DNA of 64,000 bases from Candidatus Moraniibacteriota bacterium (lineage in GTDB: Bacteria; Patescibacteriota; Minisyncoccia; Moranbacterales; UBA1568). Numbering within the stretch: the first letter of the stretch is position 1; each line of letters begins with the position of its first letter. A program made the position numbers and the translations under genes. This document shows positions 1-63,900 of the stretch, in pieces. The stretch is from contig JBPOIB010000006.1 of NCBI GenBank assembly GCA_052034935.1, positions 537 to 64,536 on the forward strand, read 5' to 3'. Below the pieces are notes generated by a model that worked only from the letters and a program-made list of their open reading frames with translations, did not search any database and was not told the origin of the DNA.

Positions 1-611
1 ATTTGAATGTCCGCAAATATTCTGTTTGCACAAAATACTCACGGACACTTCAGTTGACGATGAAGAATGTTTGCGCAGACTTCACCGTTTGTATTGCTTG
101 CCATATCACGTCCCTTGACGAAACATGATACGACGACCTTACAACTTTGACTTTTAAGCATACTCGTCATAGCCCCGCGCATGCGGCCTACTTCTCAGAC
201 GTGCTTACAAAGACTTCAATGAATTGTTAAGTTTTCTTGCGCGGAAAGACGAAATCTCGGAGACAAGTTTCTCACCCAAACCTCTCTCTTTCCGAACAAT
301 CAGTTATCTAAAGTGCAACTGCTTTTCAAAACAAAACTTCGACCCGTGAGCCGAAGATTTTTCGTACCCAATCTGTGTCTATTCAGTTTCAGTTGAGTTT
401 CACAGTTGGCGTGTCTTTTTCCCGTTTCTAAAGCGGTTTTTCTATCTTATAGAAGCATCCGAATACTGTCAAGTATTTCACCAAAGAGGGGCCGAGACCC
501 TTCTGACCGAAGTGGAAATTCCTGGTTTTAAGCAAGAAAAAACGCTCACTGCTGGGGGCAATGAGCGGTCGAGGCGCCTGGTTTCGGGCGCTACTGGTTG
601 CGGTGGGATGG

Positions 612-1424
612 TCAGCCGCCGTCGTGCATGGCCGGATGGCCATGGTCGTGGCCATTGCCACGCGAACGCGGATCGCGCTCACGGCCACTGCCGGTGCGGC
701 GCGAGCGACCGGCGAGGGCAGCAGCGAGGAGGATCCCCAACCCGGGCGGCATGCCTTCCGGCAGACCATCTTCTTCTTCGGCGCCGAACAAGGCAGCCAG
801 CTCGGGCGGCATGCCCGGCGGCAGGCTGCTGCGTCGGCCCTGGCTCGCGCGTGACTGTTGCACCATGCCGACACAGCTGTTGATCAGGACGTGCAGCAAA
901 CGCATGCGCCGCGCATCGAGGGCACCGGTGCCACCGAGGATCATCTCCAGGACATGGCTTGTGTTGCGGATCTGTTGGCGGCCGTCACCTTCGTCCGGAC
1001 GCGCGAGGAGCGCTTCCAGCTTGGCGATCGTCCCCGGATCACCAGCGGTGCCGATCAGGTCGTCGGGATCGATGTACCAGCGGTCGGCCTCGGGCGCCGG
1101 CAGATCGCGGTACCACTGCAGCTGCTCGATGCCGGCACCCTGCTGAACGATGGTTTCGGGACCGACATGGCCGTACTGTCGGCCATCGTGATTGACGAAG
1201 GCCTCGGCATGGTCGTCCCAGCGCCAGGGACCCTTCGTGTCGCGCACGATGGACAGCGCTCCGACGGACTTCACCGAGAAGTCGAACCAGGTGCCGCCGC
1301 AGCTCGCGAGAACCAGGATCCGGTGGTTGCGATGCACCGGGCAATCGAGGTTGGTGATGGCGTCGCCCGGACGCAGATTCTGCATGATGCGGGAGAGACG
1401 GGCATGAGACTTGGGCTTGGGCAT
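612..1424 (-). CDS. Hypothetical protein in a high-GC pocket. The C-terminal region has tandem GMPP(E/G)L-type repeats.
   Basis: The ORF has balanced amino-acid composition (W/Y/K/N/F), unlike the D/G/R-rich opposite-strand ORF 858..1439. A GGAG lies 8 nt upstream of the ATG. The nucleotide motif cgggcggcatgcc is repeated in the 3' part. No recognisable domain. Confidence 0.45.
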   Translation of the reverse strand: MPKPKSHARLSRIMQNLRPGDAITNLDCPVHRNHRILVLASCGGTWFDFSVKSVGALSIVRDTKGPWRWDDHAEAFVNHDGRQYGHVGPETIVQQGAGIEQLQWYRDLPAPEADRWYIDPDDLIGTAGDPGTIAKLEALLARPDEGDGRQQIRNTSHVLEMILGGTGALDARRMRLLHVLINSCVGMVQQSRASQGRRSSLPPGMPPELAALFGAEEEDGLPEGMPPGLGILLAAALAGRSRRTGSGRERDPRSRGNGHDHGHPAMHDGG

Positions 1425-1544
1425 GGAGTGCTCCAGTAGGTTGTCGATGGACTGGGGTTCTGCTCAGGCTCTCGCTTGGCAGATGTATATCTAATCAGAT
1501 AAGCTCGATTCTGTCAAGACTAAAGAGATAGGTTATAGCGTGAG

Positions 1545-3389: not shown

Positions 3390-3408
3390 AGATATTAAAA
3401 AGTGATGG

Positions 3409-4536
3409 CTAGACTGTTTTCTTGCTGCCCTGCTCGGCCAGATGAGTCGCAACGAGCACCTCTACTGCGCTCTGTATCTTAGCCCGAAAAAGCGCCTTGT
3501 CAAACCGTTCGGCATGCTGGCGGATGAGTCCGCTATCGTACGTCTTGCTCTGGAATTTCCGGACCGCTTCCGACAAAGATTCTGGTGTCTGCTCATCGAA
3601 GAATTCCCCCATCTTCCCCTCTTCAAGGTGCTCCACGATATCACCGCCCCGATACGCGATAACTGGTCGCCCCGAAGCGAAGGCCTCTTCGGCGACGATG
3701 CCAAAATCCTCTTCCTGCGGAAAGATGAACGCTTGGCATTTGGCATAGTATTTGGGGAGTGCCTCGTCCGGGACACGGCCGAGAAACTCGATTGTCGGTC
3801 CGGCGATTTTTTTCAAGCGATCGAATTCCGGACCGCGGCCGATAATCTTGAGCGGCAGTTTCAGCCGATTGAAGGCCTCAATCGCGATGTCGTGGCGCTT
3901 GTAGGCGATGAGACGGCCAACCATGAGAAAATAATCCTGGCACTCACTTTCCGGAGCGACCGAAAACGAGGCAATGTCGACCGGTGGATGGATGACAACG
4001 GAGTCCTTGCGATAGTACTTGGCAATCCGTGCCTGAACGAATTTCGAGTTGGCGATGTAGTGGTCGACCCGATCAGCAGACGCTTTGTCCCAAAGCCGAA
4101 TCGGGTTCATGAAGAACGGCACAAGCTTCTTTATGAAGCGCGGAAAGCCGAAATCTTGCGTGTATTTCTGACAGTCATCCCAGGCATAACGCATCGGTGT
4201 ATGAACATAAGAAATATGAAGCGTCTCCGGTCGCGTGATAATCCCCTTCGCATAGCTGGAAGAATCCGAGAGAACGACATCGTATTTCGAGAAATCAAAG
4301 CTCTCAATCGCGGCCGGCATGAGCGGAGGAAACAACCGGTGATGCTTCCTTGCGAAACGCGACTTCTGAAGAAACGACGTGTATATCCGCTTGTCAGCGA
4401 ACTTGCCGTGCATCGCTTCCGGATCATGGAGGAGCGTATAAATCGGTGCGTACGGCCAGATCTCGGTAAACGCTTCGAGCACGCGCTCGGCGCCGCCGTA
4501 CTGCACCAGATAGTCATGGACGAGAGCGATTTTCAT
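3409..4536 (-). CDS. Glycosyltransferase family 1 (GT4-type).
   Basis: MKIALVHDYLVQYGGAERV N-terminus. EDFGIVAEEAFASGRPVIAY motif. Confidence 0.8.
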   Translation of the reverse strand: MKIALVHDYLVQYGGAERVLEAFTEIWPYAPIYTLLHDPEAMHGKFADKRIYTSFLQKSRFARKHHRLFPPLMPAAIESFDFSKYDVVLSDSSSYAKGIITRPETLHISYVHTPMRYAWDDCQKYTQDFGFPRFIKKLVPFFMNPIRLWDKASADRVDHYIANSKFVQARIAKYYRKDSVVIHPPVDIASFSVAPESECQDYFLMVGRLIAYKRHDIAIEAFNRLKLPLKIIGRGPEFDRLKKIAGPTIEFLGRVPDEALPKYYAKCQAFIFPQEEDFGIVAEEAFASGRPVIAYRGGDIVEHLEEGKMGEFFDEQTPESLSEAVRKFQSKTYDSGLIRQHAERFDKALFRAKIQSAVEVLVATHLAEQGSKKTV

Positions 4537-4539
4537 AGC

Positions 4540-4884
4540 TTAGCCGGTGATATGCTCATACTGTCCATACTTCCAGGCTGGCGCACAGCTGATAAAAAGC
4601 GACATATTTCCTTCCCAATAAAATTTTTCACCTGGTTCGATCAAGACTACGTCTCCGGGCTCGAGCGACGTTTCCTCCTCTTCTGTGACAAGCTTACCGG
4701 AACCGCTTACGATATATGCCGTCTCGGCCGAGACACGGTTCAAGACCCAGCCCTCGTCCGGATAGCGGCCACTGATTTTTGCAATCGCCGCATCAACCCG
4801 CTCATCTTCCAAACGATATTCCGACATGAGGCAGGTCTCGCCATGCTGAAACTTTTCCGCTTCTATCGATGCAATTTTTTTCAT
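4540..4884 (-). CDS. Cupin-domain protein (small cupin_2-like barrel).
   Basis: 114 aa with a GDVVLIEPGEKFYWEG motif typical of cupins. Adjacent to sugar-modifying genes. Confidence 0.55.
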   Translation of the reverse strand: MKKIASIEAEKFQHGETCLMSEYRLEDERVDAAIAKISGRYPDEGWVLNRVSAETAYIVSGSGKLVTEEEETSLEPGDVVLIEPGEKFYWEGNMSLFISCAPAWKYGQYEHITG

Positions 4885-5052
4885 ACAGCCTTATTGGGAG
4901 TGCTCATAAAAGGTTATCTCTATAGTACTCTACTTCACTCGCCGCCCGCGAGGCTCGACAAAATGAAGTTTCTATGGAATAATGTTTTTTCTCGTCTTGG
5001 GCCGAAGCTGTCGGAAGGGTTCCGAAAGCGTCCACCCCGAGAGGAGACTGCC

Positions 5053-5448
5053 ATGACTCGTCGCATTCGCGTCATCATCGAAACAAGAGGGCCTGTCCAG
5101 AACTACGAGGCGCACGTCGCCCGCCCTCTGGCCTGCATCGTGGCCAACGCGTTCGAGAACACGGTCGAGCCGGTCGAGCCGATCCTGCCCGAGCAGGTCG
5201 AGATCGAACATCGCGATGACATCTTGCTCGAGGAGATGATCGTGGTCGCCATCTCCATCGACACGAGCTACGACGACCACCACATCCGTGAGAAGGATGC
5301 GCTCAGTGCCCGGATCGCCCAAGCGATTCACCAGAACGGCATGTTCCGCTGCCGTGGTCACCACGAGCCCAACGTCCAAAACCCGACCAGCAGGGTTCGT
5401 CTCGAAATCAATCTGGGCGTCCGGCTGCCGAGTCTCGAAACAGCCTGA
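5053..5448 (+). CDS. Hypothetical small protein, member P0 of a six-member paralogous family (see findings).
   Basis: GAGGAGACTGCC lies directly upstream of the ATG, nearly identical to the sequence upstream of P4. High GC. Shares the N-terminal MTRRIRVIIE motif and the DDHHIREKDAL motif with P3/P4/P5. Lies inside a long antisense shadow ORF (3442..5448). Confidence 0.55.
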   Translation: MTRRIRVIIETRGPVQNYEAHVARPLACIVANAFENTVEPVEPILPEQVEIEHRDDILLEEMIVVAISIDTSYDDHHIREKDALSARIAQAIHQNGMFRCRGHHEPNVQNPTSRVRLEINLGVRLPSLETA

Positions 5449-5477
5449 AGCTTCGAGCGCCAAGCCGCCAACCCGAA

Positions 5478-5518
5478 CGCTCCCGGACCTCACATGGTTC
5501 TGGAGCGCTTTCTTTTTT
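5478..5518 (+). terminator. Rho-independent terminator after P0. Its T-run overlaps the stop codon of the convergent metalloprotease gene.
   Basis: CGCTCC...GGAGCG stem followed by CTTTCTTTTTT. Confidence 0.5.
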
Positions 5519-6467
5519 ATGCCGTAGCGAGTTCCCAAACTTTGCGAAGGTCCCGATAAAGCAAATCCCAGACGGTGACCGAACAGACTCCGATGAGGGC
5601 GGATTCATCTTCTTTTGAAAGGGCCAAGTTTTCTACGTTCTGCTCTCCCATCATCGGGTACATGATCGATTCCGGATTGTCGACGTGGCCAAGACCGAGC
5701 GCATGTCCCAACTCATGAGTGAGCACCATGCGCAGATGGTTCCGATCATCAAATTGGTAGATATCGATTCCTTCGCCGTTGTAGATGCCCTGATCGAAAG
5801 CCTCCCCAGTCCCGTAGACTTCGGTGAATTCATCGAGCTCAGCATTGTAACGGTCGATGATCTTTTCCTCTTCCTTCGCGTATCGATTGACGTCGGCAAC
5901 GAGTCCGTTCACCTTCTGACGCTTTGCCTCGAGCATGTTCTGATCGCGCTCGAGCGCCCGCTCCTCATCGCGAAGCCACTCAATTTCGTCTTCGTCCGTT
6001 CGGTCGCTCTCGTTCCATTTGATGACGCGGATATTGTAGCGCTTCAGCCTCGCTTCAAAAGCTGCAAGTGATGAATCATAGTCCTGCCGCGCCGACTTGA
6101 GCTCGGCTGCCAGTCGATTGTATTTTTCCTTGATACTCTCCTGCTTCGACTGAACGGTCGTAAGCTCCTGTTCCAGCTTCTGACTCTCAATGGTCCGTGC
6201 TTGACGTTCGTCGAAAATGAGATTGACTGGGAAAGCCGCCGTCTCATCGTAACGAAAGAGATCACGACGAACCGATATTTCCCATGGTTCTTCGGCTTCG
6301 GCGAGCGCCGCCTGAAAATCAGCTTTCGAGATACCAAAGCGTTCGTCGAATTGGCCGATGGTATACGCCAAGGCAATCCGGCACGGTACGCGTGACGATT
6401 CAAACGCATAGAGTCCGCCAAAAGCCGCGATGATGATGAGAATCCAGAGAGAAATCCGCTTGGTCAT
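5517..6467 (-). CDS. Matrixin-like (M10 family) zinc metalloprotease. Has an N-terminal TM anchor and a long coiled-coil region.
   Basis: HELGHALGLGH (HExxHxxGxxH) zinc-binding motif followed by a Met-turn-like IMYP. N-terminal hydrophobic helix. Confidence 0.65.
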   Translation of the reverse strand: MTKRISLWILIIIAAFGGLYAFESSRVPCRIALAYTIGQFDERFGISKADFQAALAEAEEPWEISVRRDLFRYDETAAFPVNLIFDERQARTIESQKLEQELTTVQSKQESIKEKYNRLAAELKSARQDYDSSLAAFEARLKRYNIRVIKWNESDRTDEDEIEWLRDEERALERDQNMLEAKRQKVNGLVADVNRYAKEEEKIIDRYNAELDEFTEVYGTGEAFDQGIYNGEGIDIYQFDDRNHLRMVLTHELGHALGLGHVDNPESIMYPMMGEQNVENLALSKEDESALIGVCSVTVWDLLYRDLRKVWELATA

Positions 6468-6496
6468 AGGTTTCCACTATCATAGCATTCTGGCTC

Positions 6497-6525
6497 TCTC
6501 AAGCCTTTGACAGCACAGTTTCACA
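6497..6525 (+). promoter_or_regulatory. Sigma-70-like promoter for the P1-P5 operon.
   Basis: TTGACA, a 17-nt spacer, then TAGTAT. GGAG precedes the P1 ATG at 6591. Confidence 0.5.
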
Positions 6526-6590
6526 TTGCTAGTATCCGCTCGAAGAATGACCTCTTCCCCTTCTTTAAAAACCCCTACCGGAGCTATCCT

Positions 6591-6893
6591 ATGCGTATCC
6601 GTATCATCGGTCCCGCCCTGGCTGATCCGGCCCAAAGGATCAGGTCCGAGCGACTTCTCGACTTTGTCGGTTGCACCCTCGAAGCGGATGGCCAGGCAGT
6701 CACTGCACTCCGCAGACTGCATCCGACGCTTCCGAATCACCCCCGGACCTACGGCGTCGCGATCGCCGATGTGCTGGAAGCGCTCGCTTTGAAACCGAGC
6801 ATTCACCCCGAAGCGATTCCTGCCTGGGGTGGACTCATCGAGAGTTGCCTCGTTTACTTCCCAGCCGACTCAGTCGAATCCCTCACTGATTGA
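6591..6893 (+). CDS. Hypothetical small protein, family member P1.
   Basis: Starts MRIRIIGP. The C-terminus IPAWGGLIESC is related to the P5 C-terminus IPVECGELIES. High GC. Confidence 0.55.
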   Translation: MRIRIIGPALADPAQRIRSERLLDFVGCTLEADGQAVTALRRLHPTLPNHPRTYGVAIADVLEALALKPSIHPEAIPAWGGLIESCLVYFPADSVESLTD

Positions 6894-6904
6894 AGGAGCC
6901 CATC

Positions 6905-7219
6905 ATGCCGAAGACATTCCGCATCGTCAAAGCTCCTCCTCAATTGGAGCGTTCACCTGAAGCCCTGGAGAGCCTTGTCGGTCTCGAATTCGAAGATGAT
7001 CCGGCGCGAGTCGAGGAGATCATCAATGCATTCCCCTACATCCCTCAAGTCCCGGATTGCTTCATCGCCGTCGACGCGAAAGTCATCCTGCGGGCGCTTT
7101 GGAAGTTCCGAAGCTACGCAGCCTACCGCTACTGGACCCAGTTCGCTTTCGTCTTCCCACTCCTGTACATCCCAGTTTGGTGTTGCGAGACGCTGGACGA
7201 CAACCCTCAAGGAGTCTGA
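6905..7219 (+). CDS. Hypothetical small protein, family member P2.
   Basis: AAGGAG lies upstream of the ATG. C-terminal YIPVWCCETLDD motif. Abuts P3 with a 0-nt gap. Confidence 0.5.
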   Translation: MPKTFRIVKAPPQLERSPEALESLVGLEFEDDPARVEEIINAFPYIPQVPDCFIAVDAKVILRALWKFRSYAAYRYWTQFAFVFPLLYIPVWCCETLDDNPQGV

Positions 7220-7535
7220 CATGGCCACGATTTACGTCTTCATCTATCAAGCCCCGAGGAGCGGAGTCCATCCAGAACTGGCGAAAAAGCTCCTCGGTCT
7301 CGTCGTGCCGGTCTGGGACTACCTCCTCATCGGCACCCAGGAAGCGCTCTACCCCTGGGAGGACGCGACGGTCTATTCGGTCTGCAATGACGACATCCGC
7401 GAAGCCCTCGTCTCGCACTACGGCCCGAATACCGCCGAAACCCTGTACCCCTTTCTCCCGGTCGGCCAGGCAACCAAAGTCCCGGTCGACTGTTGCGAGA
7501 TCCGCCCCTGCCCGCCAACCACGAGAGGAGACTGA
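7220..7535 (+). CDS. Hypothetical small protein, family member P3.
   Basis: DDIREAL motif. C-terminal VPVDCCEI motif. Ends 2 nt before P4. Confidence 0.55.
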
Positions 7536-7537
7536 CC

Positions 7538-7846
7538 GTGAAGAAGACCCTTATCATCCGTACGGCGCCAGTCGTGCGCATCAACTCCGCGCTCGCTGCC
7601 GCCATTGTCGGCATCACCATCGGTCTACGCCCGGAACTCTACGTCTGGACAACTGAACCGACCGACCCGACGCAGGGCGACTTCTACTACGTCCACAACG
7701 ATGACCTGCGCGAAGCGCTGACCGTACGCGACGGCATCACCGCCGCCTCGGCCTGGTTCGAATACCTGCCGCTCGGCCGTGTCACCAGCGTCGAGTGCGT
7801 CTGCTGCGAACTGATCGATTCCGCAGTCGAAACTGTCAGGACCTGA
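7538..7846 (+). CDS. Hypothetical small protein, family member P4 (GTG start).
   Basis: GAGAGGAGACTGACC followed by GTG. DDLREAL motif. C-terminal VECVCCELIDS motif. Ends 2 nt before P5. Confidence 0.5.
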   Translation: MKKTLIIRTAPVVRINSALAAAIVGITIGLRPELYVWTTEPTDPTQGDFYYVHNDDLREALTVRDGITAASAWFEYLPLGRVTSVECVCCELIDSAVETVRT

Positions 7847-7848
7847 TC

Positions 7849-8145
7849 ATGCGACGGATTCGAATTATCCGACCCATACCCCCGAGTGTACTCCGAGAAT
7901 CGGAAACGATGCGGCGAGCCCTTGTCGGAACAGTCGTACAGGTCGATGGTCCCGCCGTCGCCGCACGACGAGAGCGCTACCCGGGCATCGCTCCACGCGT
8001 TCCCGAGACGTATGAAGCGACGCTCGATGAAGTACTCCTCGCACTCGGCAAACTGGGACGCTATGAAGCTGAGATGGACTGGCGCATCGTCGCGCCACAT
8101 ATCGTCGGCATTCCAGTCGAATGCGGCGAACTCATCGAATCCTGA
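7849..8145 (+). CDS. Hypothetical small protein, family member P5.
   Basis: Starts MRRIRIIRP. DEVLLALGKL parallels DVLEALALKP in P1. C-terminal IPVECGELIES. Confidence 0.55.
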   Translation: MRRIRIIRPIPPSVLRESETMRRALVGTVVQVDGPAVAARRERYPGIAPRVPETYEATLDEVLLALGKLGRYEAEMDWRIVAPHIVGIPVECGELIES

Positions 8146-8165
8146 CCGCGCCATCGCGCGCACCA

Positions 8166-8201
8166 AGAGGCGACCCTGACCCGGTCTGCCTCTTTTCTTT
8201 T
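8166..8201 (+). terminator. Rho-independent terminator closing the P1-P5 operon.
   Basis: AGAGGC...GCCTCT stem followed by TTTCTTTTG. Confidence 0.5.
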
Positions 8202-8329
8202 GTCTTTACAAATCGGCTCGACAGTGGAAGAATAGCCTCTCGTCTCAAGTCAAGACTGCCGGAAATCTCTCCGTCGGTGCTCAGCCCAAGATGAGAAGCC
8301 CTTTGAAAACCATCCCCCAGGAGATCTCG

Positions 8330-8740
8330 ATGTCCACCCTTTGCCCCCTCCTTACCGTGTTCGTCGGACCCGATGTCGAAATGAACACCCCTACGCCGGC
8401 CGACGCCGCCAAGGTCGTTGCCCAGCTCGTCGCCCAGCTCATCAACCATCGCCGTGAAGAAGGCGAACGTTGCGGCGACAGCGACATTGCCGTCCGCTTC
8501 TTCCACGCAACCGAAGGCTCGGTCGTACTCCTCAACTGCGGCGATGTTTCGCTCACGCTCGAGCTCCACGAAGACGACGTTGACCGCCGTGATGAGGAAG
8601 GCCTGCGGGAATTCGTCGACGACATCTGTACGGCGATCACGAACCACGGCCCGTTCTCGAAGGGAGGCAATCCCGATGCCCTCGTCGTGCACTGCCAATT
8701 GGACTGGCGGCGGCACATGGCCCGCGAAATCCTGTTCTAA
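8330..8740 (+). CDS. Hypothetical protein (136 aa) in the same high-GC cluster.
   Basis: AGGAG lies 5 nt upstream of the ATG (MSTLCPLL). Acidic protein with no recognisable domain. The antisense ORF 8132..8782 was rejected. Confidence 0.45.
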   Translation: MSTLCPLLTVFVGPDVEMNTPTPADAAKVVAQLVAQLINHRREEGERCGDSDIAVRFFHATEGSVVLLNCGDVSLTLELHEDDVDRRDEEGLREFVDDICTAITNHGPFSKGGNPDALVVHCQLDWRRHMAREILF

Positions 8741-8770
8741 TTTCCCAGCCTGCGCCAACACGCGCAAAAA

Positions 8771-8802
8771 AGACGACCCCACAAAGGTCGTCTCGTTTTT
8801 TT
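8771..8802 (+). terminator. Hairpin plus T-run terminator between convergent genes.
   Basis: AGACGACC...GGTCGTCT stem followed by CGTTTTTTT. Confidence 0.5.
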
Positions 8803-9163
8803 ACTGAGTTTTCTTTGCTCGCCAGGAGAGAAGACCAAGACCGAGCGCGGACACGATTTCATACAACACCACCTGTGATGGCGGCACCATGAACATGGCA
8901 ATCGCTCCCTGCGGATCCGGATGGATATAGAAAATATCCGCGAGTGCCCAGCTCGCGAGTACGACGGTAATGAACACTGAGCCAATATTCACGTTCGGAT
9001 GTTCCGACTTCGCCGTCTGTATCACCATAAGGACGTAAGGTAAAAGCATCCATACAATAAAGACGCCATATGCCCCGAGGTTCGAAGGCTTTGCCAACGC
9101 AACGAACCATGCAGCCGACAAGACACCGTAAAGAATGAGCACTCCCGCCAGTATCTTACTCAT
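8801..9163 (-). CDS. Hypothetical integral membrane protein (3-4 TM).
   Basis: Hydrophobic helices throughout. No recognisable motif. Confidence 0.45.
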   Translation of the reverse strand: MSKILAGVLILYGVLSAAWFVALAKPSNLGAYGVFIVWMLLPYVLMVIQTAKSEHPNVNIGSVFITVVLASWALADIFYIHPDPQGAIAMFMVPPSQVVLYEIVSALGLGLLSWRAKKTQ

Positions 9164-9166
9164 AGA

Positions 9167-10153
9167 CTAAATACCGAAGTAGTCCTTATACCAGTCGACG
9201 AAATTCTTTATGCCGACATCGATGCGAGTGGTCGGTTTCCAGCCGAGTTTGCGGAGCTTGCGAATGTCCGCGACGGTCGACGGTACATCGCCAGGTTGGA
9301 TCGGCATCAGTTTTTTCTTGGCGACTTTGCCGACATTCTTTTCGATCACCTCGATGAAGCGCGTGAGCTTCTCTTCCCTGTCCCCACCAATATTCATCAC
9401 CGTGCAGGCGAGATTCGCATCGAGGCAGGTCAGGATGCCCGAGACGATATCGTCAACATAGGTAAAGTTCCGCGTCATGTTGCCGTGATTGTAGACTTTG
9501 ATAGTTTCGTCCGCAAAAATCGCGCGAGTAAAATCGAAGAGCGCCATGTCCGGTCGCCCCCACGGCCCGTAGACCGTGAAGAAGCGGAGTCCCGTCGTGG
9601 GGAGCCCATGGATATGACTGTAGACATGGGCCATGAGTTCGGTCGCTTTCTTTGTCGCAGCGTACGGCGAGATCGGCGTATCGACCGGATCGGCTTCGGA
9701 AAACGGCAGCTTCGTATTGTTGCCGTAGACGCTCGATGACGACGCGTAGAGAAAATTCTTCACACCGTACTTCACGGCAAGATCGAGCAGATAGGTTGTC
9801 CCCATCACATTCACATCGGCATACAGCGCCGGATCACGGAGACTATTCCGTACCCCCGCCATCGCCGCGAGATGGACCACTTTGTCCGGCCGCTCTTTCT
9901 TGAACAGCTTTTCGAGAAAAGCGCGGTCACGGATATCGCCGCGATAGAGCTTGAACTGGCCCTTGTAACCTTTCAGGAACTTCTTGATGCGATCTTCTTT
10001 GATCCGCGGATCATAGTAGTCATTGAAATTATCGATGAGTACCGGCATATCGCCGCGGTCCATCAGGGCCTTTGCGGTCGCCGAACCAATGAAGCCGGCT
10101 CCGCCTGTGATAAGCACCTTGATACCCTTCTTCGCCGCTTTCTTTTCCACCAT
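9167..10153 (-). CDS. NAD-dependent epimerase/dehydratase (short-chain dehydrogenase family, UDP-sugar 4-epimerase-like, e.g. UDP-glucuronate 4-epimerase).
   Basis: TGGAGFIGS Rossmann motif. YAATKKATE (YxxxK) catalytic motif. Confidence 0.8.
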   Translation of the reverse strand: MVEKKAAKKGIKVLITGGAGFIGSATAKALMDRGDMPVLIDNFNDYYDPRIKEDRIKKFLKGYKGQFKLYRGDIRDRAFLEKLFKKERPDKVVHLAAMAGVRNSLRDPALYADVNVMGTTYLLDLAVKYGVKNFLYASSSSVYGNNTKLPFSEADPVDTPISPYAATKKATELMAHVYSHIHGLPTTGLRFFTVYGPWGRPDMALFDFTRAIFADETIKVYNHGNMTRNFTYVDDIVSGILTCLDANLACTVMNIGGDREEKLTRFIEVIEKNVGKVAKKKLMPIQPGDVPSTVADIRKLRKLGWKPTTRIDVGIKNFVDWYKDYFGI

Positions 10154-10163
10154 ACGATCGTGA

Positions 10164-10958
10164 TTATTTCTTACGGATGAATTCTTGCGCTCGTTTCCAC
10201 AGTCCGCGCGGACCGCTTCGCATCAGTTCACGGTACGCATTCCCAGCGATCGCGAATACTCGGCCGACCGGAGAACCGGGACGGAAGAACGACCGCTGAA
10301 GGGCGGCCCGCTTCTCCATGTGCCGGATAAGCTTTTCAGTGATCCGTTCGGCTTCCTCCGACGTGAGCACTCCTTTGCGGAGCACGATCGCGAACCCGTT
10401 ACCAATCTTGTCATCGGTGTCCTGGAAATCGACGAGCGACCAGTCGAGTCCGATTGAGCGCACCAGGTCGAGAACGTCTTCGGTTACCCAATAGCTGCAG
10501 TGACCAGTTTCCGGATCCGGTTCGACAGCTAAAGTACCCACATGGCGCGCCTGAAGCTCGGCGAATGTCGTCGCTTCCTTGCCGCGATCGAATGTCCGCT
10601 CGCGATGAGGCACGATCATATAGACATACCCGTCCGGCTTCACGACGCGATACCACTCGGTCAGCGCCTTGATCGGATCAGCAAAGTGCTCGAGTACGTG
10701 TGATGAGACGACGAAATCGACGGATCCGTCCGGAAACAGCAGAGCATCCCCGGGCGCGACGACATCTATGGGTGCAACCTCGCCCGAAATATGAAGCTCG
10801 CGTTTTTTATACGTGCTGCGATTAAACTCATCCGCGATATCGACATTTTGGGTATTGAGGCCGAAGGGATTATGCGCCGAAGCGCCGATCTCGATGCCAA
10901 TAAGGCCGTCGAGATAACGATGGGCGAGCTTACTTTCAGGAAATATCCGTTTCGCCAT
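10164..10958 (-). CDS. Class I SAM-dependent methyltransferase.
   Basis: GIEIGASAHNPFG (motif I-like) and VDFVVSSHVLEHFADP (Methyltransf_11-like) motifs. Confidence 0.7.
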   Translation of the reverse strand: MAKRIFPESKLAHRYLDGLIGIEIGASAHNPFGLNTQNVDIADEFNRSTYKKRELHISGEVAPIDVVAPGDALLFPDGSVDFVVSSHVLEHFADPIKALTEWYRVVKPDGYVYMIVPHRERTFDRGKEATTFAELQARHVGTLAVEPDPETGHCSYWVTEDVLDLVRSIGLDWSLVDFQDTDDKIGNGFAIVLRKGVLTSEEAERITEKLIRHMEKRAALQRSFFRPGSPVGRVFAIAGNAYRELMRSGPRGLWKRAQEFIRKK

Positions 10959-10969
10959 AGTAGTAAGTG

Positions 10970-12148
10970 TTATCCGATACGCGAACGCAGGTAAGTGTAG
11001 TATGCCTCATTCGCCGCATTTTTCGTAGTCGAGTACTGGAGAGCTGTCTCACGAGCCGCTCCCCCCAGCTTTTCCCGGAGCGCTGCATCGGCGATCAGCC
11101 GTCCGATCTTTTCCGCCCATTCCTCGGTCGTCGCCGCGATGAATCCGTCTGTCCCGTCGGTGATCGCTTCGCGGAACGTCTGTGTCGCTGCCGCTACCGT
11201 CGGTACGCCGACGATTCCCGCCTCGAAGAATTTCAGTTCCGATTTCGATTCGCAGAACGAGTTGCCGATTTCGAGCGGGGCGAGGTTGATATCGAGCGAC
11301 GCGATGTTGCCGAAAAGTTCACGCCGCGGTACGAACGCAACCCGCTCGATGCGGTCCGCGTACTGCTGCAGCCGGTCCTCGGTATCGAGCGGTCCCGCGA
11401 GGACGAGCCGCATCTCCGGATACTTTTCGAAAAGCATAATGAGCGCTTCGGAAATCGTCGCGAAGTCCTTGTTGTGGCTCGGTGTCCCGGAAAGATAGCC
11501 GACCCGGACTATTCCGTTAGACTTCTCTTTCGTCTTTTTTTCCAGAGCCGCTTCGGCCCACCAGACATCTTCTTCGGTCAACCGATTCGGCACGATGAAC
11601 ACTTCCTTGCCTTTCTCGCGAAGCTTATCAGCAAGGAAGCTCGTGGTCGTGGTCGCCGTCTTCACATACGGGTCAGCAAGAATCTCACCCCCGACGCCAT
11701 GTTCATACAGCTTGCGCTCGAGCGCATTCATCTGCTGCCAATAATCCATATGCACCAAAAACGCCGGATCGTACACGAGGTCGTCTGTCTCGAAGATGAT
11801 CGTCTTGCCGAGTTCTTTCGCTCGCGCGACGAGCCGCGCCACCGAGGGTGTCATGAGGACACGGTGGAGGACGAAAACCTGGAACGTCTCAGCGTATGAT
11901 GCGAGCCGCGGATTATCCTGTACTGTGACCGATGCTTTGAATCCGTGTAGCTGGAGTTCTTCGGCCACGTGCCTCGTCCGATAGCGTGCACTATCCCCCA
12001 CACCGCCTGAGACGAAGAGAATATCGCCGGGTGCCACGGGAGCGAAGAGTGCAACAAACGCTTCCGAGACGCGCCGCCCGCCGCGGACCAATCCGTCGCG
12101 ACGAATCACACTCCAAGCTTTCCCGATTTTGATGAGGAGAGTATTCAT
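10970..12148 (-). CDS. Glycosyltransferase family 1 (GT4-type).
   Basis: C-terminal ESKSELKFFEAGIVGVPTVAA motif (E-x7-E-like GT4 region). Confidence 0.75.
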   Translation of the reverse strand: MNTLLIKIGKAWSVIRRDGLVRGGRRVSEAFVALFAPVAPGDILFVSGGVGDSARYRTRHVAEELQLHGFKASVTVQDNPRLASYAETFQVFVLHRVLMTPSVARLVARAKELGKTIIFETDDLVYDPAFLVHMDYWQQMNALERKLYEHGVGGEILADPYVKTATTTTSFLADKLREKGKEVFIVPNRLTEEDVWWAEAALEKKTKEKSNGIVRVGYLSGTPSHNKDFATISEALIMLFEKYPEMRLVLAGPLDTEDRLQQYADRIERVAFVPRRELFGNIASLDINLAPLEIGNSFCESKSELKFFEAGIVGVPTVAAATQTFREAITDGTDGFIAATTEEWAEKIGRLIADAALREKLGGAARETALQYSTTKNAANEAYYTYLRSRIG

Positions 12149-12154
12149 ACTTCT

Positions 12155-13360
12155 CTACGGCCGCATGACAGCGCGATAGACATCAGCGAGGATCTCGCCG
12201 GTCCGGTCCCACGAGAATTTCTCCCGGGCCCGGTCACGATTCGCTTCGCCTTTGCGCCTCCTCAGTTCTGGATCACGGAAAAGCCGGAGTACGGCATCAG
12301 CGAGGCCCGCATCAGAAATCTCGCGCGCATACTCCCCGCCTTCAGCGAGATACTCGCGATTATTCTCCGTATCGAAGCCGACGACCGGCAGCCCGGCACC
12401 CATGTACTGGAGCATTTTCCCGCTCGCCTGACCAACACCTTCCTCTTTCGGATCGATGCCGACATCGCTCATCGCGAGGATCTCGCGGAGTGAAAAATAC
12501 GGTAAGGGCGTAATCGGCGTCACCCGGTCCATCCACGGCTGGTCTTCGAAGTACAGGGCCACTTCGTTCCAGGGAAATCCCGCGACGATGATATGGGCTT
12601 TCGGATGTCCCGCGAGGATAGCCGGAATCGCGTTCACGAAGTGGCGGATGCCTTTGTTCGCGACGAGCGCACCAGTATACACCGCGACGAGCGCGTCTTC
12701 CGGAATGCCGTATTTCCGCCGGAGTGCGGCGCGCGGAAACTCGAGCACCTCCTCGCCGTCCGTTCCGACACCGTCAGGCACCGTGACCGGCTCATTCTTT
12801 TTTCTCATCGCTGAGATTTCCCGCGTGTTCTTCCACGAACTCGTCACCGCGCGGTCACCGAGATTGTCGACCACGCGCTCTACCCATTCGAATAAGCGTC
12901 TGAGCGGTCCCGACTGAAGATACGCATGCGACACCATTTCCTTCGTCAGGCTGCCATGAAAATCCCCGACGAGTTTCATCTTCCGCCAGAAAAGTGCTTT
13001 CTGTACCACCCAGCCGATGAGCACGCCTTCGTGCAAGTGCCCGTGGAGGATATCGGGCCGCGTCGTTCGCGCGAGGAAAAAGGTTTTGCGGATAAGCATC
13101 AGATCGAGGATGAGCTTCTGCCAGTCCGGACCGGCTTCGAGCTTCTTATACCAGAAAAGAAGCCGACGGATGCGGCGCACCTCGATCTTTTTCGCAAGCG
13201 GTTCCGGTAGGTCTTGACCGATATGATAAGTCGCAATCGTAACCGAAAAGCCGCGCCGCTCAAGGGCGAGCGCTTCTTCCAGAATACGGATATGTGTCCC
13301 CCGGTCCGAAAAGAACGGGGTCGGGGCGATCATGAGGATTTTTTTGCCTGTTTCAGCCAT
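12155..13360 (-). CDS. Glycosyltransferase family 1 (GT4-type).
   Basis: KKILMIAPTPFFSDRGTHIRI N-terminus. C-terminal GKMLQYMGAGLPVVG motif. The start was set at the internal Met (MAETGKK). Confidence 0.75.
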   Translation of the reverse strand: MAETGKKILMIAPTPFFSDRGTHIRILEEALALERRGFSVTIATYHIGQDLPEPLAKKIEVRRIRRLLFWYKKLEAGPDWQKLILDLMLIRKTFFLARTTRPDILHGHLHEGVLIGWVVQKALFWRKMKLVGDFHGSLTKEMVSHAYLQSGPLRRLFEWVERVVDNLGDRAVTSSWKNTREISAMRKKNEPVTVPDGVGTDGEEVLEFPRAALRRKYGIPEDALVAVYTGALVANKGIRHFVNAIPAILAGHPKAHIIVAGFPWNEVALYFEDQPWMDRVTPITPLPYFSLREILAMSDVGIDPKEEGVGQASGKMLQYMGAGLPVVGFDTENNREYLAEGGEYAREISDAGLADAVLRLFRDPELRRRKGEANRDRAREKFSWDRTGEILADVYRAVMRP

Positions 13361-13462
13361 ATGCCTCCAGTATACCCTAGGCAGATTTCCGAGGGAAAAA
13401 GAAAAACGCCAGGGAGCCGTTTGGCTCTCTGGCATTGTTTTCAGGCTCGGACTGACCGAACT

Positions 13463-61872: not shown

Positions 61873-63900
61873 TTAGAAGAACCCCACGACGAGCCGAACC
61901 AGTACGATCGAGGCCAGCGAAACCGTAATCCCAATGATTGAGTACTTCACGATATTCTTTCCGGTATCGATACGACTCTCGTCCCCGGCTGCGGTCAGGT
62001 ACATGAAGGCTCCGATGACGAGCATGATGAGCGCGATGACACCGATGACCGAGAGGATAAAGTTGACCACACCCATCGTCATGTCGAGAAGTGATGGTCC
62101 GGCCGGAACTAACGGCGTGATGATACCGAGCATGGTTCCAATCTCTCGGAAGAACATCGGAGCGGCGATGCCGAGTGCAAGGCCGATGAGCGCGCCCAGG
62201 ATGCATTTCTTGCCCAGTTCCACCCGGCCCGTATCGCCGGCTGAGGTGATATAGAGAAAGGCACCGATGACGATGAAGATGATAGCGAGGATAGCAATCA
62301 GGTTCTGGAGCTCGGTCAGAAATTTCGCGATGAGTGCCGGAAGGTCCGCCGTAAAGAGCGGGTTCGGATACTTGACCGTCACCGGAGATGATGGCGGACC
62401 GGGTGGAACAGGAGGAACCACTTTCGGCGTACAGCAATCCATCACCGGACCGCAAGAAAGATCGAATTCTGTCTCTTCAGTCGTCCCGTCACAAGCAACC
62501 CGACACACTCCAGCACCACCGGATGTTCCTCCGACGCAAGCACCAACCGGAGGAGGGGCCACCTTGGGTGTGCAGCAATCCTCTACACCACAGGCGAAGT
62601 CGAATTCTGATGTTTCTGTAGCAGGATTACAGGCTGGACGGCACACTCCAGCGGCGCCGGACGTTCCACCCACGCAGGCAGCAGGGGCAGCGGCAGCACA
62701 GATACTTCCGTCCCAAGCTGATCCGGCGATACAGGTAGCATCCGACGAAGCTGTATCAATGATAGCCCCATTATTCCAGAGATCAAACCGTACGGTGGCA
62801 CCATAGCTCAAAGTACGCGTCTCGCCAGCCGAAGAAGCCGCTAGAGAAAAAGCGACCGCGTCCTGATCAACCCGCGGATTGACCGGAGCAGGAATGTTCC
62901 AACTTACTGAAATATCGCAGGCGCTCTGGCCCACCGGAATATCGCAACCAAACGGGACAGTGAACGTCGGTGATCCCGGCGGTCCGTACGAGACACAACA
63001 ATAGGTCGATCCGCCCCCGCAGGTCGCAGGGATATACGTCCCATCGACCGTCTCAGCGACATCCGGAGGAGTACACGAGAATCCACAGGTCCCCATATTG
63101 CCGCTATCGGCGCTCCGACAGGCGCTGCCAGGCACCGGAACGGGGGCAGCACACTGGCTCCCATCCCAGACATCGCTTCCGACGCACTGAGCACTCGACG
63201 GTTGCATGCTATACAACGGACCATCCAAAAGCTCGAGGATGTTCAATCCATGACTCAAAACGACGACTGTTCCCGGAGAGGATGCTGCACCGGAAACCGA
63301 ACTGCCGTCGTGGACAATCGATGGATTGAGCGGATTGGAAATGGACCAGCTGATAGTGATCGAACAATTGCTTCCGCCAGTGGGGATACTGCAGTTCGCC
63401 GGAACATTGAAGAAATCAAGGATTGGTTGGCAGCAGACCGCCCCGCCGAAACAAGCAGTGTCGGCAGCGCCGCCACCCACGCAGGCCGCGGGCAACTGGC
63501 AGGTGCCGTTTCCGCCCGAGCAGGCGGCACCGATGTTCGGCGGCGGGAGGCAGCAGATCTGTGCAGGCTGGCCACAAGATTCGAATGACTGAACATCGCC
63601 ATTATAGCCGCAGACTGGTTCACCCGGAAAACGAGTGTAGAGATCGCTCCGACACAGGCCGCCGGCATTCGTACAATCATTGACGCTTTGAGCCATTTGG
63701 CAACAAATCAAGGACCCGTTCGAATTAAACGGACAGGTGTGGGTAAAAATCGGATTTTCCCCTGCACCACAGCCAGAAATCCAACCCGGACGACACGCAG
63801 CGCCGATATCTTCACAGGCCTGAGCACTCACGCCATTCGGCGTAAACGTGATAAAAGCAAGTGCCAGAATAATGCTCGTGAAAAAATTCTTGAAGCGCAT
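61873..63900 (-). CDS. Secreted Cys-rich modular protein ending in two tandem T4SS-pilin-like (TrbC/VirB2-type) helix-loop-helix domains.
   Basis: Signal peptide. About six repeats of a C..G..C...CC.P module. Two CxIPxxxxxCxIxxSWxIxxPxNP modules. C-terminal motifs IVIGAFLYITSAGDTGRVELGKK and LVIGAFMYLTAAGDESRIDTGKN, each between two hydrophobic helices. Confidence 0.6.
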   Translation of the reverse strand: MRFKNFFTSIILALAFITFTPNGVSAQACEDIGAACRPGWISGCGAGENPIFTHTCPFNSNGSLICCQMAQSVNDCTNAGGLCRSDLYTRFPGEPVCGYNGDVQSFESCGQPAQICCLPPPNIGAACSGGNGTCQLPAACVGGGAADTACFGGAVCCQPILDFFNVPANCSIPTGGSNCSITISWSISNPLNPSIVHDGSSVSGAASSPGTVVVLSHGLNILELLDGPLYSMQPSSAQCVGSDVWDGSQCAAPVPVPGSACRSADSGNMGTCGFSCTPPDVAETVDGTYIPATCGGGSTYCCVSYGPPGSPTFTVPFGCDIPVGQSACDISVSWNIPAPVNPRVDQDAVAFSLAASSAGETRTLSYGATVRFDLWNNGAIIDTASSDATCIAGSAWDGSICAAAAPAACVGGTSGAAGVCRPACNPATETSEFDFACGVEDCCTPKVAPPPVGACVGGTSGGAGVCRVACDGTTEETEFDLSCGPVMDCCTPKVVPPVPPGPPSSPVTVKYPNPLFTADLPALIAKFLTELQNLIAILAIIFIVIGAFLYITSAGDTGRVELGKKCILGALIGLALGIAAPMFFREIGTMLGIITPLVPAGPSLLDMTMGVVNFILSVIGVIALIMLVIGAFMYLTAAGDESRIDTGKNIVKYSIIGITVSLASIVLVRLVVGFF

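Follow-up and report, generated by a model that had tools for sequence, protein, structure and literature searches.

On the basis of sequence and profile comparisons, five tandem genes (P1 to P5) of a Candidatus Moraniibacteriota genome represent a previously undescribed protein family, which has so far been seen in only one subclade of Candidatus Moranbacteria/Moraniibacteriota. We analyzed these genes in a stretch of 64,000 nucleotides (i.e., the window) and compared them with related loci, which are designated by L numbers. A CPR origin of the genome is supported by ValS, which shows 77% identity to Candidatus Moraniibacteriota. The explanation that we favor overall, with a probability of roughly 40%, is that this new family resides in an inserted cassette and comprises diversified, non-enzymatic binding proteins. 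The genomes of CPR bacteria (Patescibacteria) are small, and most of their genes are unannotated. The anatomy of the array and its setting, which we describe with high confidence, is presented in Table 1.

Table 1. Features of the array and its neighbors in the window
Feature	Coordinates	Strand	Description
P0	5053..5448	+	131 aa; other unannotated family; orthologs (38 to 95% identity) in L001, L002, L010, L012, and L013
M10 protease gene	5517..6467	-	Membrane-anchored matrixin-like (M10) metalloprotease; PF00413, 3.2e-12 (47 bits; cut-off, 24)
Promoter-like site	6507..6535	+	TTGACA-17-TAGTAT; consensus scan, 10/12 matches; TG precedes -10
P1	6591..6893	+	Array member, subfamily B; 100 aa; family HMM, 1.6e-23
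P2	6905..7219	+	Array member, subfamily C; 104 aa; IPVWCCE; family HMM, 2.6e-30
P3	7221..7535	+	Array member, subfamily A; 104 aa; VPVDCCE; family HMM, 8e-25
P4	7538..7846	+	Array member, subfamily A; 102 aa; GTG start; VECVCCE; family-HMM hit
P5	7849..8145	+	Array member, subfamily B; 98 aa; IPVECGE; family HMM, 8.8e-27
Terminator-like site	8165..8202	+	GC-rich hairpin, then UUUUCUUUUG; directly 3' of P5
P6	8330..8740	+	Acidic, 136 aa; third unannotated family; orthologs 76 to 80% identical; HMM hits in L013

The preliminary description had regarded six open reading frames (ORFs), P0 to P5, as paralogs. This relationship holds for P1 to P5, whose similarity is significant in pairwise alignments: BLASTP linked P3 with P4 (1.5e-10) and P1 with P5 (2e-4), single-linkage clustering with orthologs from related loci (93% identity between P1 and its L012 ortholog; 54% between P2 and L001 positions 2165 to 2479) brought all array members into one cluster, and full-length profile-profile alignments joined subfamilies B and C (1.5e-11), B and D (8e-14), and A and B (2e-5). 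By these comparisons, P1 to P5 are truly homologous (i.e., five tandem paralogs of one protein family). P0 was rejected as a sixth paralog: no BLAST link to the array was found, hhalign gave P = 0.46, and the family HMM produced no hit at an E value of ≤1. The DD block thought to be common to P0, P3, and P4 (the "DDILLEE" match) is a by-eye coincidence. Judged by the same comparisons, P0, which had no hit in Pfam, is a real conserved gene and not a member of the array family.

P3 starts one base later than previously placed. Three of the intergenic gaps from P1 to P5 (11, 1, 2, and 2 nt) lie within the 0 to 2 nt that had been claimed for all of them, but the first does not. The G+C content of the genes in this region is raised, as had been proposed, but only modestly (0.56 to 0.62 versus 0.54 to 0.58 in the flanking glycosyltransferase [GT] genes). 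All five array copies are acidic, and none of them carries an N-terminal hydrophobic segment or signal peptide; only P4 (residues 12 to 30; KD, 1.85) exceeds the usual hydrophobicity threshold of 1.6, and no consistent transmembrane-like segment was found family-wide. The acidic protein P6 is conserved, its true start is the one originally assigned (8330), and its gene is preceded by a promoter-like site (8205 to 8233) and followed by a terminator-like site (8771 to 8803; 8771 to 8793 in the terminator scan).

P1 to P5 look like a separate operon, and the consensus promoter and the terminator noted earlier were both recovered. The promoter-like site, whose call is a consensus match and no proof of function, falls in the 123 bp that separate P1 from the divergent M10 gene, and a Shine-Dalgarno-like GGAG/AGGA motif is found ahead of every array start codon. 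The hairpin after P5 (8165 to 8194), together with its U-run, scored -23.7 kcal/mol (z = -3.7; more exactly, -3.67). A simple hairpin scan missed it, most likely owing to an unpaired base in the 3' arm; the 7-base loop is inside the 3- to 8-base range of that scan. P0 and P4 do share the upstream resemblance noted earlier (i.e., an identical 13-nt stretch, CGAGAGGAGACTG), but it is just Shine-Dalgarno context.

That the array proteins contain no recognizable domain was borne out by Pfam-A, NCBIfam, PHROGs, and PADLOC, in which P1 to P5 had no match above the cut-offs (best E values, 0.08 to 0.3; ~12 to 13 bits), and by the PDB sequences, which yielded no match to the family. A word search of 5.8 billion proteins retrieved 12 clusters of the family, while an exhaustive HMMER search of 1.84 billion representatives gave 54 hits (about 51 clusters); three of these hits were long proteins with short partial matches, and the two inspected were spurious. 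The named sources of the clusters were Candidatus Moraniibacteriota (CPR). The alignment assembled here can seed a new family entry, and the family stands out for its confidently predicted fold, its defined insertion site, and its clear hypervariability between strains.

An array protein is predicted to be an acidic, cytoplasmic single domain of ~100 residues with an SH3-like barrel. In the P5 model (pLDDT, 96), the whole chain, including the Cys-Cys-Glu (CCE) segment, forms one compact, partly open five-stranded barrel, with the RT/n-Src/distal order and a 3-10 turn preceding beta5 that characterize the SH3-like class; the RT-type loop is long, the n-Src position holds a helix, and the distal loop is replaced by a helical hairpin. 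The P4 sequence is identical to that of database protein P0001 (AF2 pLDDT, 79). Only Leu66 is near-invariant across the family (98%), hydrophobic residues, Gly, or Pro occupy most of the best-conserved columns, and the differences in entropy between loops and core are modest.

The CCE block had been described as shared family-wide and as a possible metal, redox, or thioester-type active site, which would make the array proteins small enzymes or metalloproteins. Cys92 is the most conserved polar-type residue in the C-terminal half (77%), and it often stands after Asp and before Cys and Glu. However, the block is not invariant: Cys93 is kept in 54% of the members (Ala in 30%) and Glu94 in 61%, the motif of P1 is degenerate (FPADSVE, with DSVE in place of CCE), P5 has CGE, and other members have YA, SS, QA, or CT. 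The family alignment offers no further conserved His or Cys able to complete a metal site, the libraries searched revealed no similarity to any enzyme family, and the model places the CCE residues in the 3-10 turn and the last strand (beta5). Invariant catalytic or ligand residues, as a Cys-dependent enzyme or metal site would have, were not found across the family. Given this partial conservation and the loss in P1, a Cys-based active site is unlikely, and we regard the array proteins as very improbable enzymes or metalloproteins. The conserved Cys and Glu residues are probably structural elements of the turn and strand.

The P5 model also bears on the explanation that the array proteins are RiPP precursors of the NHLP/Nif11 type, which would be processed by the nearby protease and/or glycosyltransferases. 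Such precursors have a long conserved leader followed by a short variable, Cys-containing C-terminal core. The tandem paralogs of about 100 aa each, their variable tails beyond the Cys motif (277 insert residues after alignment position 98), and the closeness of a protease and glycosyltransferases are consistent with this idea, but the CCE segment belongs to the compact domain, many members stop directly after the motif (e.g., P5 ends in ...CGELIES), and the leader families of NCBIfam and Pfam had no hit. Furthermore, neither YcaO, LanM, radical-SAM, nor any other maturase was detected in the cassette, no maturase was found at any locus examined, and the GT cluster is unchanged where the array is absent. 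A RiPP function is thus hardly credible.

The array varies strongly among strains, as a check across related loci revealed: 2, 3, 4, or 5 copies are present per locus, and fused two-domain genes also occur. Between the window and L010, the flanks are 94 to 96% identical; P3 and P4 are 51% and 65% identical to their counterparts, the position of P2 is taken by a member of only 25% identity, and the third L010 copy is closer to a member from a distant genome (68%) than to its counterpart in the window. The dN/dS ratios, which are based on few substitutions, range from 0.13 to 0.75 in the array (i.e., <1 for every copy) versus 0.04 to 0.11 in the neighboring genes, and together with the codon-position substitution patterns they back the coding of P1 to P5 on the + strand. 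The ORFs, Shine-Dalgarno sites, and fold-defining residues are kept in all copies, even where the M10 proteins are only 60% identical. The copy-number variation, fusions, and allele replacement fit the earlier, generic idea of a lineage-specific expansion or an immunity-like diversified array.

The divergent neighbor of the array is, as first described, a matrixin-like protease with a coiled coil, and it lies outside the array family. It has a transmembrane helix (residues 5 to 23), a coiled-coil insertion (~86 to 215), and the motif HELGHALGLGH followed by a Met-turn (SIMYP); these motifs and the PF00413 score place it among the matrixins. The array starts 110 to 125 bp from the M10 start codon, in divergent orientation, in the window and nine related loci, which are all of the array-bearing loci with enough sequence (L001, L002, L003/4, L005, L010, L011, L012, L013, and L015). 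This constancy would be expected if the array proteins were partners of the protease (i.e., inhibitors, immunity proteins, pro-domain-like chaperones, or substrates), co-regulated from a shared divergent promoter region. However, the protease family outnumbers the array family about tenfold (467 versus about 51 clusters), and in L016 and L017, whose proteases are 42 to 55% identical, the epimerase gene directly adjoins the M10 gene on the same strand, the glycan/GT cluster is unchanged, and the array-family HMM had no match at an E value of ≤1. The protease also evolves slowly (95 to 96% identity between strains), in contrast to the replaced middle array copies. Its N-terminal helix should place the catalytic part outside the cell, whereas the array proteins have no signal peptide. 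Given the size of the protease family, its occurrence without the array, and the different compartments, a functional tie is doubtful, and we consider a partnership with the protease improbable; the positional link could still stem from a shared divergent promoter region that co-regulates both. The far wider M10 family and the relatives without the array show that the cassette is an insertion in one subclade.

The epimerase-M10 junction also holds other cargo (i.e., SLFN_AlbA_2, an SDH_protease/NfeD-like gene, a membrane protein gene, and an RNase_T-like gene), and SLFN_AlbA_2, a defense-type cargo, occurs near the array in L010 and L012. Within ~5 kb of the array, we found genes for GT4/GT1, cupin, Wzz-like, M10, epimerase, methyltransferase, and small unknown proteins; neither a toxin gene (i.e., large and secreted, with a variable C-terminal toxin domain) nor an effector gene was among them. 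The gathering of unrelated cargo, the dN/dS ratios of <1 everywhere, and the lack of a partner gene among the neighbors would be compatible with a neutral or near-neutral expansion, in which an insertion hotspot holds drifting duplicates of a small protein that is structural or regulatory and plays no part in conflict. This possibility is rather unlikely, as the intact genes described above and an allele replacement with phylogenetic incongruence differ from simple decay.

The array operon, on the strand opposite the M10 gene, very probably belongs to a small-gene cassette (P0, the array, x126, and P6) that has entered a conserved cell-envelope glycan cluster around its M10 gene; the array and P6 lie at the epimerase-M10 junction. 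Under the binding-protein explanation that we favor, the array proteins would be binding modules without enzymatic activity, the specificity of which may have diversified through duplication, fusion, and allele replacement; they may act in an interaction or conflict process as a set of binders of the immunity or adaptor type, rather than as enzymes or M10 partners. The functional part of this explanation (i.e., a rapidly diversifying array of non-enzymatic binding proteins) is proposed tentatively. A more speculative reading, which we hold as doubtful, is that of a new kind of hypervariable CPR cassette, in which duplication, fusion, and allele exchange between strains would have turned an SH3-like scaffold into a repertoire of specific binders that neutralize or recognize variable partners (e.g., toxins, phage proteins, or host-cell factors). 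If true, this would be an immunity or recognition system not described before, in which the co-inserted P0, x126, and P6 may take part. To our knowledge, little is known about how CPR episymbionts handle competitors, phages, and hosts. As a possible conflict or recognition module of Moranbacteria, the array is a concrete candidate that can be tested; were it merely a drifting lineage-specific expansion, its value would be in annotation only.

Compared with known SH3-like small beta-barrels (eukaryotic SH3, Spt5/NusG KOW, bacterial SH3b, and PetP/PsaE-type), the array protein aligns over only half of its length, with 4 to 21% sequence identity and no match to SH3, KOW, or Tudor profiles; it has three inserted helices (35 to 43, 59 to 68, and 72 to 81), and its distal hairpin is swapped for a helical one. 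The protease resembles bacterial matrixins (MEROPS M10, PF00413) in its HExxHxxGxxH zinc motif and Met-turn, and its best PDB sequence hits are matrilysin (MMP-7) and MMP-8/12. It differs in having a coiled coil of ~130 residues inside the catalytic domain and an N-terminal membrane anchor, and only its C-terminal third aligns with solved MMPs. Polymorphic-toxin and contact-dependent inhibition loci carry arrays of diversified immunity genes. Unlike those arrays, that of Moranbacteria has no adjacent toxin gene with a variable C-terminal domain and no match to PADLOC or a known Imm family, and its only neighboring enzyme is a conserved membrane-anchored protease that is also found without it. 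It nevertheless resembles them in consisting of tandem, small, cytoplasmic, acidic, and variable paralogs, in its strain-variable copy number (2 to 5) and gene fusions, in the replacement of alleles within near-identical flanks, and in its location in an insertion hotspot beside defense-type cargo.

On the basis of sequence comparisons, we judge that the array comprises five paralogs (P1 to P5) rather than six. The preliminary description had counted the upstream 131-amino-acid (aa) protein P0 as a sixth member and had named proper alignments as the test of paralogy; the similarity is significant among P1 to P5 but does not extend to P0. Within the window, BLASTP directly links two pairs only (P3-P4, 1.5e-10; P1-P5, 2e-4), and the remaining links are supplied by orthologs (e.g., P5 versus the ortholog of P2 in the related locus L001, 2e-6). 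Profile alignments (hhalign) between subfamilies A (P3/P4), B (P1/P5), C (P2), and D are full-length and colinear (B-D, 8e-14; B-C, 1.5e-11; A-B, 2e-5; A-D, 1.6e-4; A-C, 2e-3). The array proteins of all loci formed one single-linkage cluster, outside which fell P0, the downstream acidic 136-aa protein P6, and a further small family, x126. A search of all 64 kb of the window with the family hidden Markov model (HMM) recovered five copies and no more. P0 was rejected as a member, as it had no BLASTP link, no HMM match in the window even at an E of ≤1, and an hhalign P of 0.46 against the family. A distant relationship between P0 and P6 is possible (hhalign P of 3e-4 over 87 columns; probability, 38%).

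Coordinates of genes, signals, and rejected reading frames in the window and in related loci
Feature	Locus	Position	Strand	Remarks
P1	window	6591-6893	+	ORF listing
P2	window	6905-7219	+	ORF listing
P3	window	7221-7535	+	ORF listing
P4	window	7538-7846	+	ORF listing; GTG start
P5	window	7849-8145	+	ORF listing
P0	window	5053-5448	+ frame	gene separate from P1-P5
P6	window	8330-8740	+ frame	true start 8330; gene separate from P1-P5
M10 protease gene	window	5517-6467	minus	between P0 and P1
Promoter-like site TTGACA-17-TAGTAT	window	6507-6535		consensus match
Terminator-like GC-rich hairpin, then UUUUCUUUUG	window	8165-8194		-23.7 kcal/mol; z -3.7 versus shuffles
Cassette small-family gene	L001	3244-3624		
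Cassette small-family genes	L010	5141-5512, 5552-5962		
Cassette small-family gene	L011	5354-5734		
Variable region 3' of P6	window	8740-9170		
Variable region 3' of P6	L012	8040-9490		
Variable region 3' of P6	L010	5960-7050		
120-aa membrane protein	window	8801-9163	minus	3' of P6
Rejected ORFs	window	4972-5538, 7687-8166, 8132-8782	minus	antisense
Wrong-strand call over P6	L002	7582-7997		antisense shadow ORF
Wrong-strand call over P6	L012	7434-8063		antisense shadow ORF
Wrong-strand call over P0	L001	1-431		antisense shadow ORF
Second high-GC pocket	window	500-1450		GC 0.66
270-aa ORF	window	612-1424	minus	in second high-GC pocket; GC3 0.79
675-aa protein	window	61873-63900	minus	C-terminal Mbov_0395 match

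P1 to P5 look like a single transcription unit, because the ORFs are packed (gaps of 11, 1, 2, and 2 nucleotides [nt]), a GGAG, AGGAG, or AGGA motif lies 6 to 9 nt upstream of every start, and both the promoter-like site before P1 and the terminator after P5 that had been proposed were found. The claimed spacing of 0 to 2 nt holds for three of the gaps but not for P1-P2, and the proposed P3 start at 7220 is out of frame. At the level of consensus signals only, the organization is operon-like. The GC content of the supposed high-GC pocket is raised, but modestly only (array genes, 0.56 to 0.62 versus 0.54 to 0.58 in the flanking glycosyltransferase genes; GC3, 0.57 to 0.79 versus 0.60 to 0.70), and says little about origin. 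The second pocket in the window is stronger, and its 270-aa ORF has no Pfam match.

The family is new and narrowly distributed. No match of P1 to P5 in Pfam, NCBIfam, PHROGs, or PADLOC reached the threshold, in agreement with the initial failure to recognize a domain, and no PDB sequence matched the family profile. A word-indexed search of 5.8 billion proteins yielded 12 family clusters, and an exhaustive HMMER scan (E ≤ 1e-3) of 1.84 billion 50%-identity representatives yielded 54 matches. Three of these are long proteins that match over short partial stretches only (the two inspected were spurious); nearly all the others are 91 to 134 aa long, with three fused two-domain proteins of 191 to 202 aa. 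Literature searches found no description of the family. Many unknown families of this kind exist in CPR genomes. A phage origin is unsupported (no PHROGs match and no BFVD structural match below an E of 0.1), as is a role as a defense-system component, since the sole PADLOC matches were coiled-coil noise on the protease.

Among the other products of the window are RNase Y, RecG, ValS, and many proteins that could not be annotated; its ValS has its closest named relatives in Candidatus Moraniibacteriota (77% identity), and the family-bearing locus L015 (GTDB genome set) is named as a Candidatus Moraniibacteriota MAG. The 675-aa protein carries a match to Mbov_0395 (pilin-like conjugal transfer) that lies below the cut-off (NCBIfam E of 4e-8). 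L001 (GCA_041730415.1, JBGSBW010000003.1) is labeled "Undibacterium sp.," a betaproteobacterium. We reject this label because the L001 ValS is 81% identical to that of the window and the Moranbacteria cassette is present; mis-binning or mislabeling of a CPR contig is the probable cause.

The family core is predicted to be an SH3-like barrel to which helices have been added, and it is without a close solved relative. The AlphaFold2 model of P5, built with a 57-sequence family alignment (pLDDT, 96; pTM, 0.87), contains strands at residues 2-6, 29-32, 54-58, 85-89, and 93-97, helices at 19-23, 35-43, 59-68, and 72-81, and a 3-10 turn at 90-92; an independent P4 model (16 sequences; pLDDT, 79) has the same order of elements. 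One rival reading takes the small proteins to be RiPP precursors. Column conservation in the 57-sequence alignment is highest for residues that are mostly in the core or in turns (Leu66, 98%; Pro11, 91%; Pro45, 89%; Gly27, 88%; Ile6, 82%; Ala74, 79%; Cys92, 77%; Pro89, 75%; Asp61, 68%; Glu94, 61%; Cys93, 54%, with Ala in 30%). A Cys-based enzyme, the rival that follows from the metal, redox, or thioester site proposed earlier on the Cys-Cys-Glu motif, would draw on the frequency of Cys92. Conservation across the three residues is too low for such an active site: the motif position reads D-S-V-E in P1, C-G-E in P5, and YA, SS, QA, or CT in other members. Since these residues are variable and, in the P5 model, make up the 3-10 turn and the point where the last strand begins, a family-wide catalytic or metal-binding role is unlikely. 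Glu94 (beta5) may pair with the conserved Arg5 (beta1), the two co-occurring in 24 of the 57 sequences.

The array varies unusually in copy number and allele; its layouts were obtained by contig look-ups and HMM scans. Five copies are present in the window and L012, five followed by x126 and P6 in L001, five (the last called short) followed by x126 and a P6 variant in L010, four followed by x126 and P6 in L013, three followed by x126 in L011 and L015, and two followed by P6 in L002; L003/L004 and L005 have four genes, one being a two-domain fusion. In all these layouts, the divergent M10 gene starts ~110 to 125 bp from the array start, and epimerase-methyltransferase-glycosyltransferase (GT) genes lie downstream. 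A distant single-copy member (L008) occupies a different site, after an MliC-domain protein. The unannotated P0 (~125 to 131 aa), x126 (~123 to 126 aa; absent from the window), and P6 (~135 aa) accompany the array and form a single cassette with it. L012 carries a true P6 ortholog (93% identical) and a paralogous 136-aa P6-like gene.

The matrixin-like Zn-protease with a coiled coil noted between P0 and P1 was borne out (HELGHALGLGH, Met-turn, coiled-coil insertion). Its family, also marked by a transmembrane (TM) anchor, comprises 467 clusters at an E of ≤1e-10, with named sources in Moraniibacteriota, Yanofskybacteria, and the Parcubacteria group; a genome-contig profile scan with the protease alignment gave no match. 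In the window, a coiled coil of ~130 residues is inserted inside the catalytic domain behind an N-terminal membrane anchor, an architecture kept across the 467 CPR protein clusters. This conservation and the location within a glycosyltransferase/epimerase/Wzz-like cluster suggest a cell-envelope role. Loci L017 and L016, with proteases 55% and 42% identical to that of the window, share a one-strand order (GT-GT-epimerase-M10-GT4-Wzz-like-GT4), and the array, P0, x126, and P6 were not found there at an E of ≤1. The protease hence belongs to a conserved cell-envelope glycan cluster, and the M10 genes without these companions indicate that the cassette was inserted later, in one subclade, between the epimerase and M10 genes. 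This epimerase/M10 junction behaves as an insertion hotspot, since its cargo differs among genomes (SLFN_AlbA_2, SDH_protease/NfeD-like, RNase_T-like, or a small membrane protein). Gene content 3' of P6 also differs between close strains, with the 120-aa membrane protein in the window and an extra divergent P6-like gene and a SLFN_AlbA_2 (Schlafen/AlbA_2) protein in L012 and L010.

That the array proteins are partners of the protease is a rival that the M10-array adjacency in these layouts favors and the array-free M10 loci weigh against. The catalytic part of M10 should be extracytoplasmic because of a TM helix at residues 5-23. No array protein has an N-terminal hydrophobic segment, and no TM-like segment is consistent across the family; P4 residues 12-30 exceed the usual threshold of 1.6 (KD, 1.85), but form a helix plus a strand in the model and are not hydrophobic in other members.

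Substitutions relative to orthologs fall mostly at third codon positions of the plus-strand frames. Long ORFs also occur on the antisense strand of this GC-rich region; considered as alternative genes, they were rejected as shadow ORFs, because the plus-frame products are those conserved as proteins in relatives. Such ORFs were called as genes over P6 in L002 and L012 and over P0 in L001; a frameshift breaks the P6 frame of L002, so that either the assembly is in error there or the gene is a pseudogene. Between the window and the close strain L012, whose nt identity stays uniform at 94.5% across the array, dN/dS is 0.13 to 0.75 in the array genes versus 0.04 to 0.11 in neighboring glycosyltransferase, epimerase, and methyltransferase genes, which indicates purifying but relaxed selection. 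A neutral expansion is the strongest of the rival readings. Between the same strains (window 3400-13400), dS is very uneven (0.03 to 0.18 in the array, P0, and M10 versus 0.45 to 0.80 in the genes for the epimerase, methyltransferase, and GTs), a hint that the cassette has recently recombined or swept between strains.

Against L010, nt identity is 94% from the cupin gene to the P2 start, alignable DNA is absent over P2, and identity is 74% over P3-P5 and 90% again in the epimerase gene; the protein identities are 96% (M10), 95% (P0), 92% (P1), 25% (P2), 51% (P3), 65% (P4), and 90% (P5). The third L010 copy shares 68% identity with one of the L002 copies, although the L002 protease is only 69% identical to that of the window, and this phylogenetic incongruence points to allele exchange. 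Indels cluster in the RT-type loop, the n-Src region, and the C-terminal tails; in entropy, the segments differ modestly.

We infer that the P1-P5 proteins would be non-enzymatic binders with diversified specificity. The family is new and well supported, its variation between strains is intriguing, and it combines a predicted SH3-like scaffold with a tandem array of diversified copies. Although no cognate toxin was found for P1-P5, these proteins resemble immunity/adaptor proteins in their behavior.
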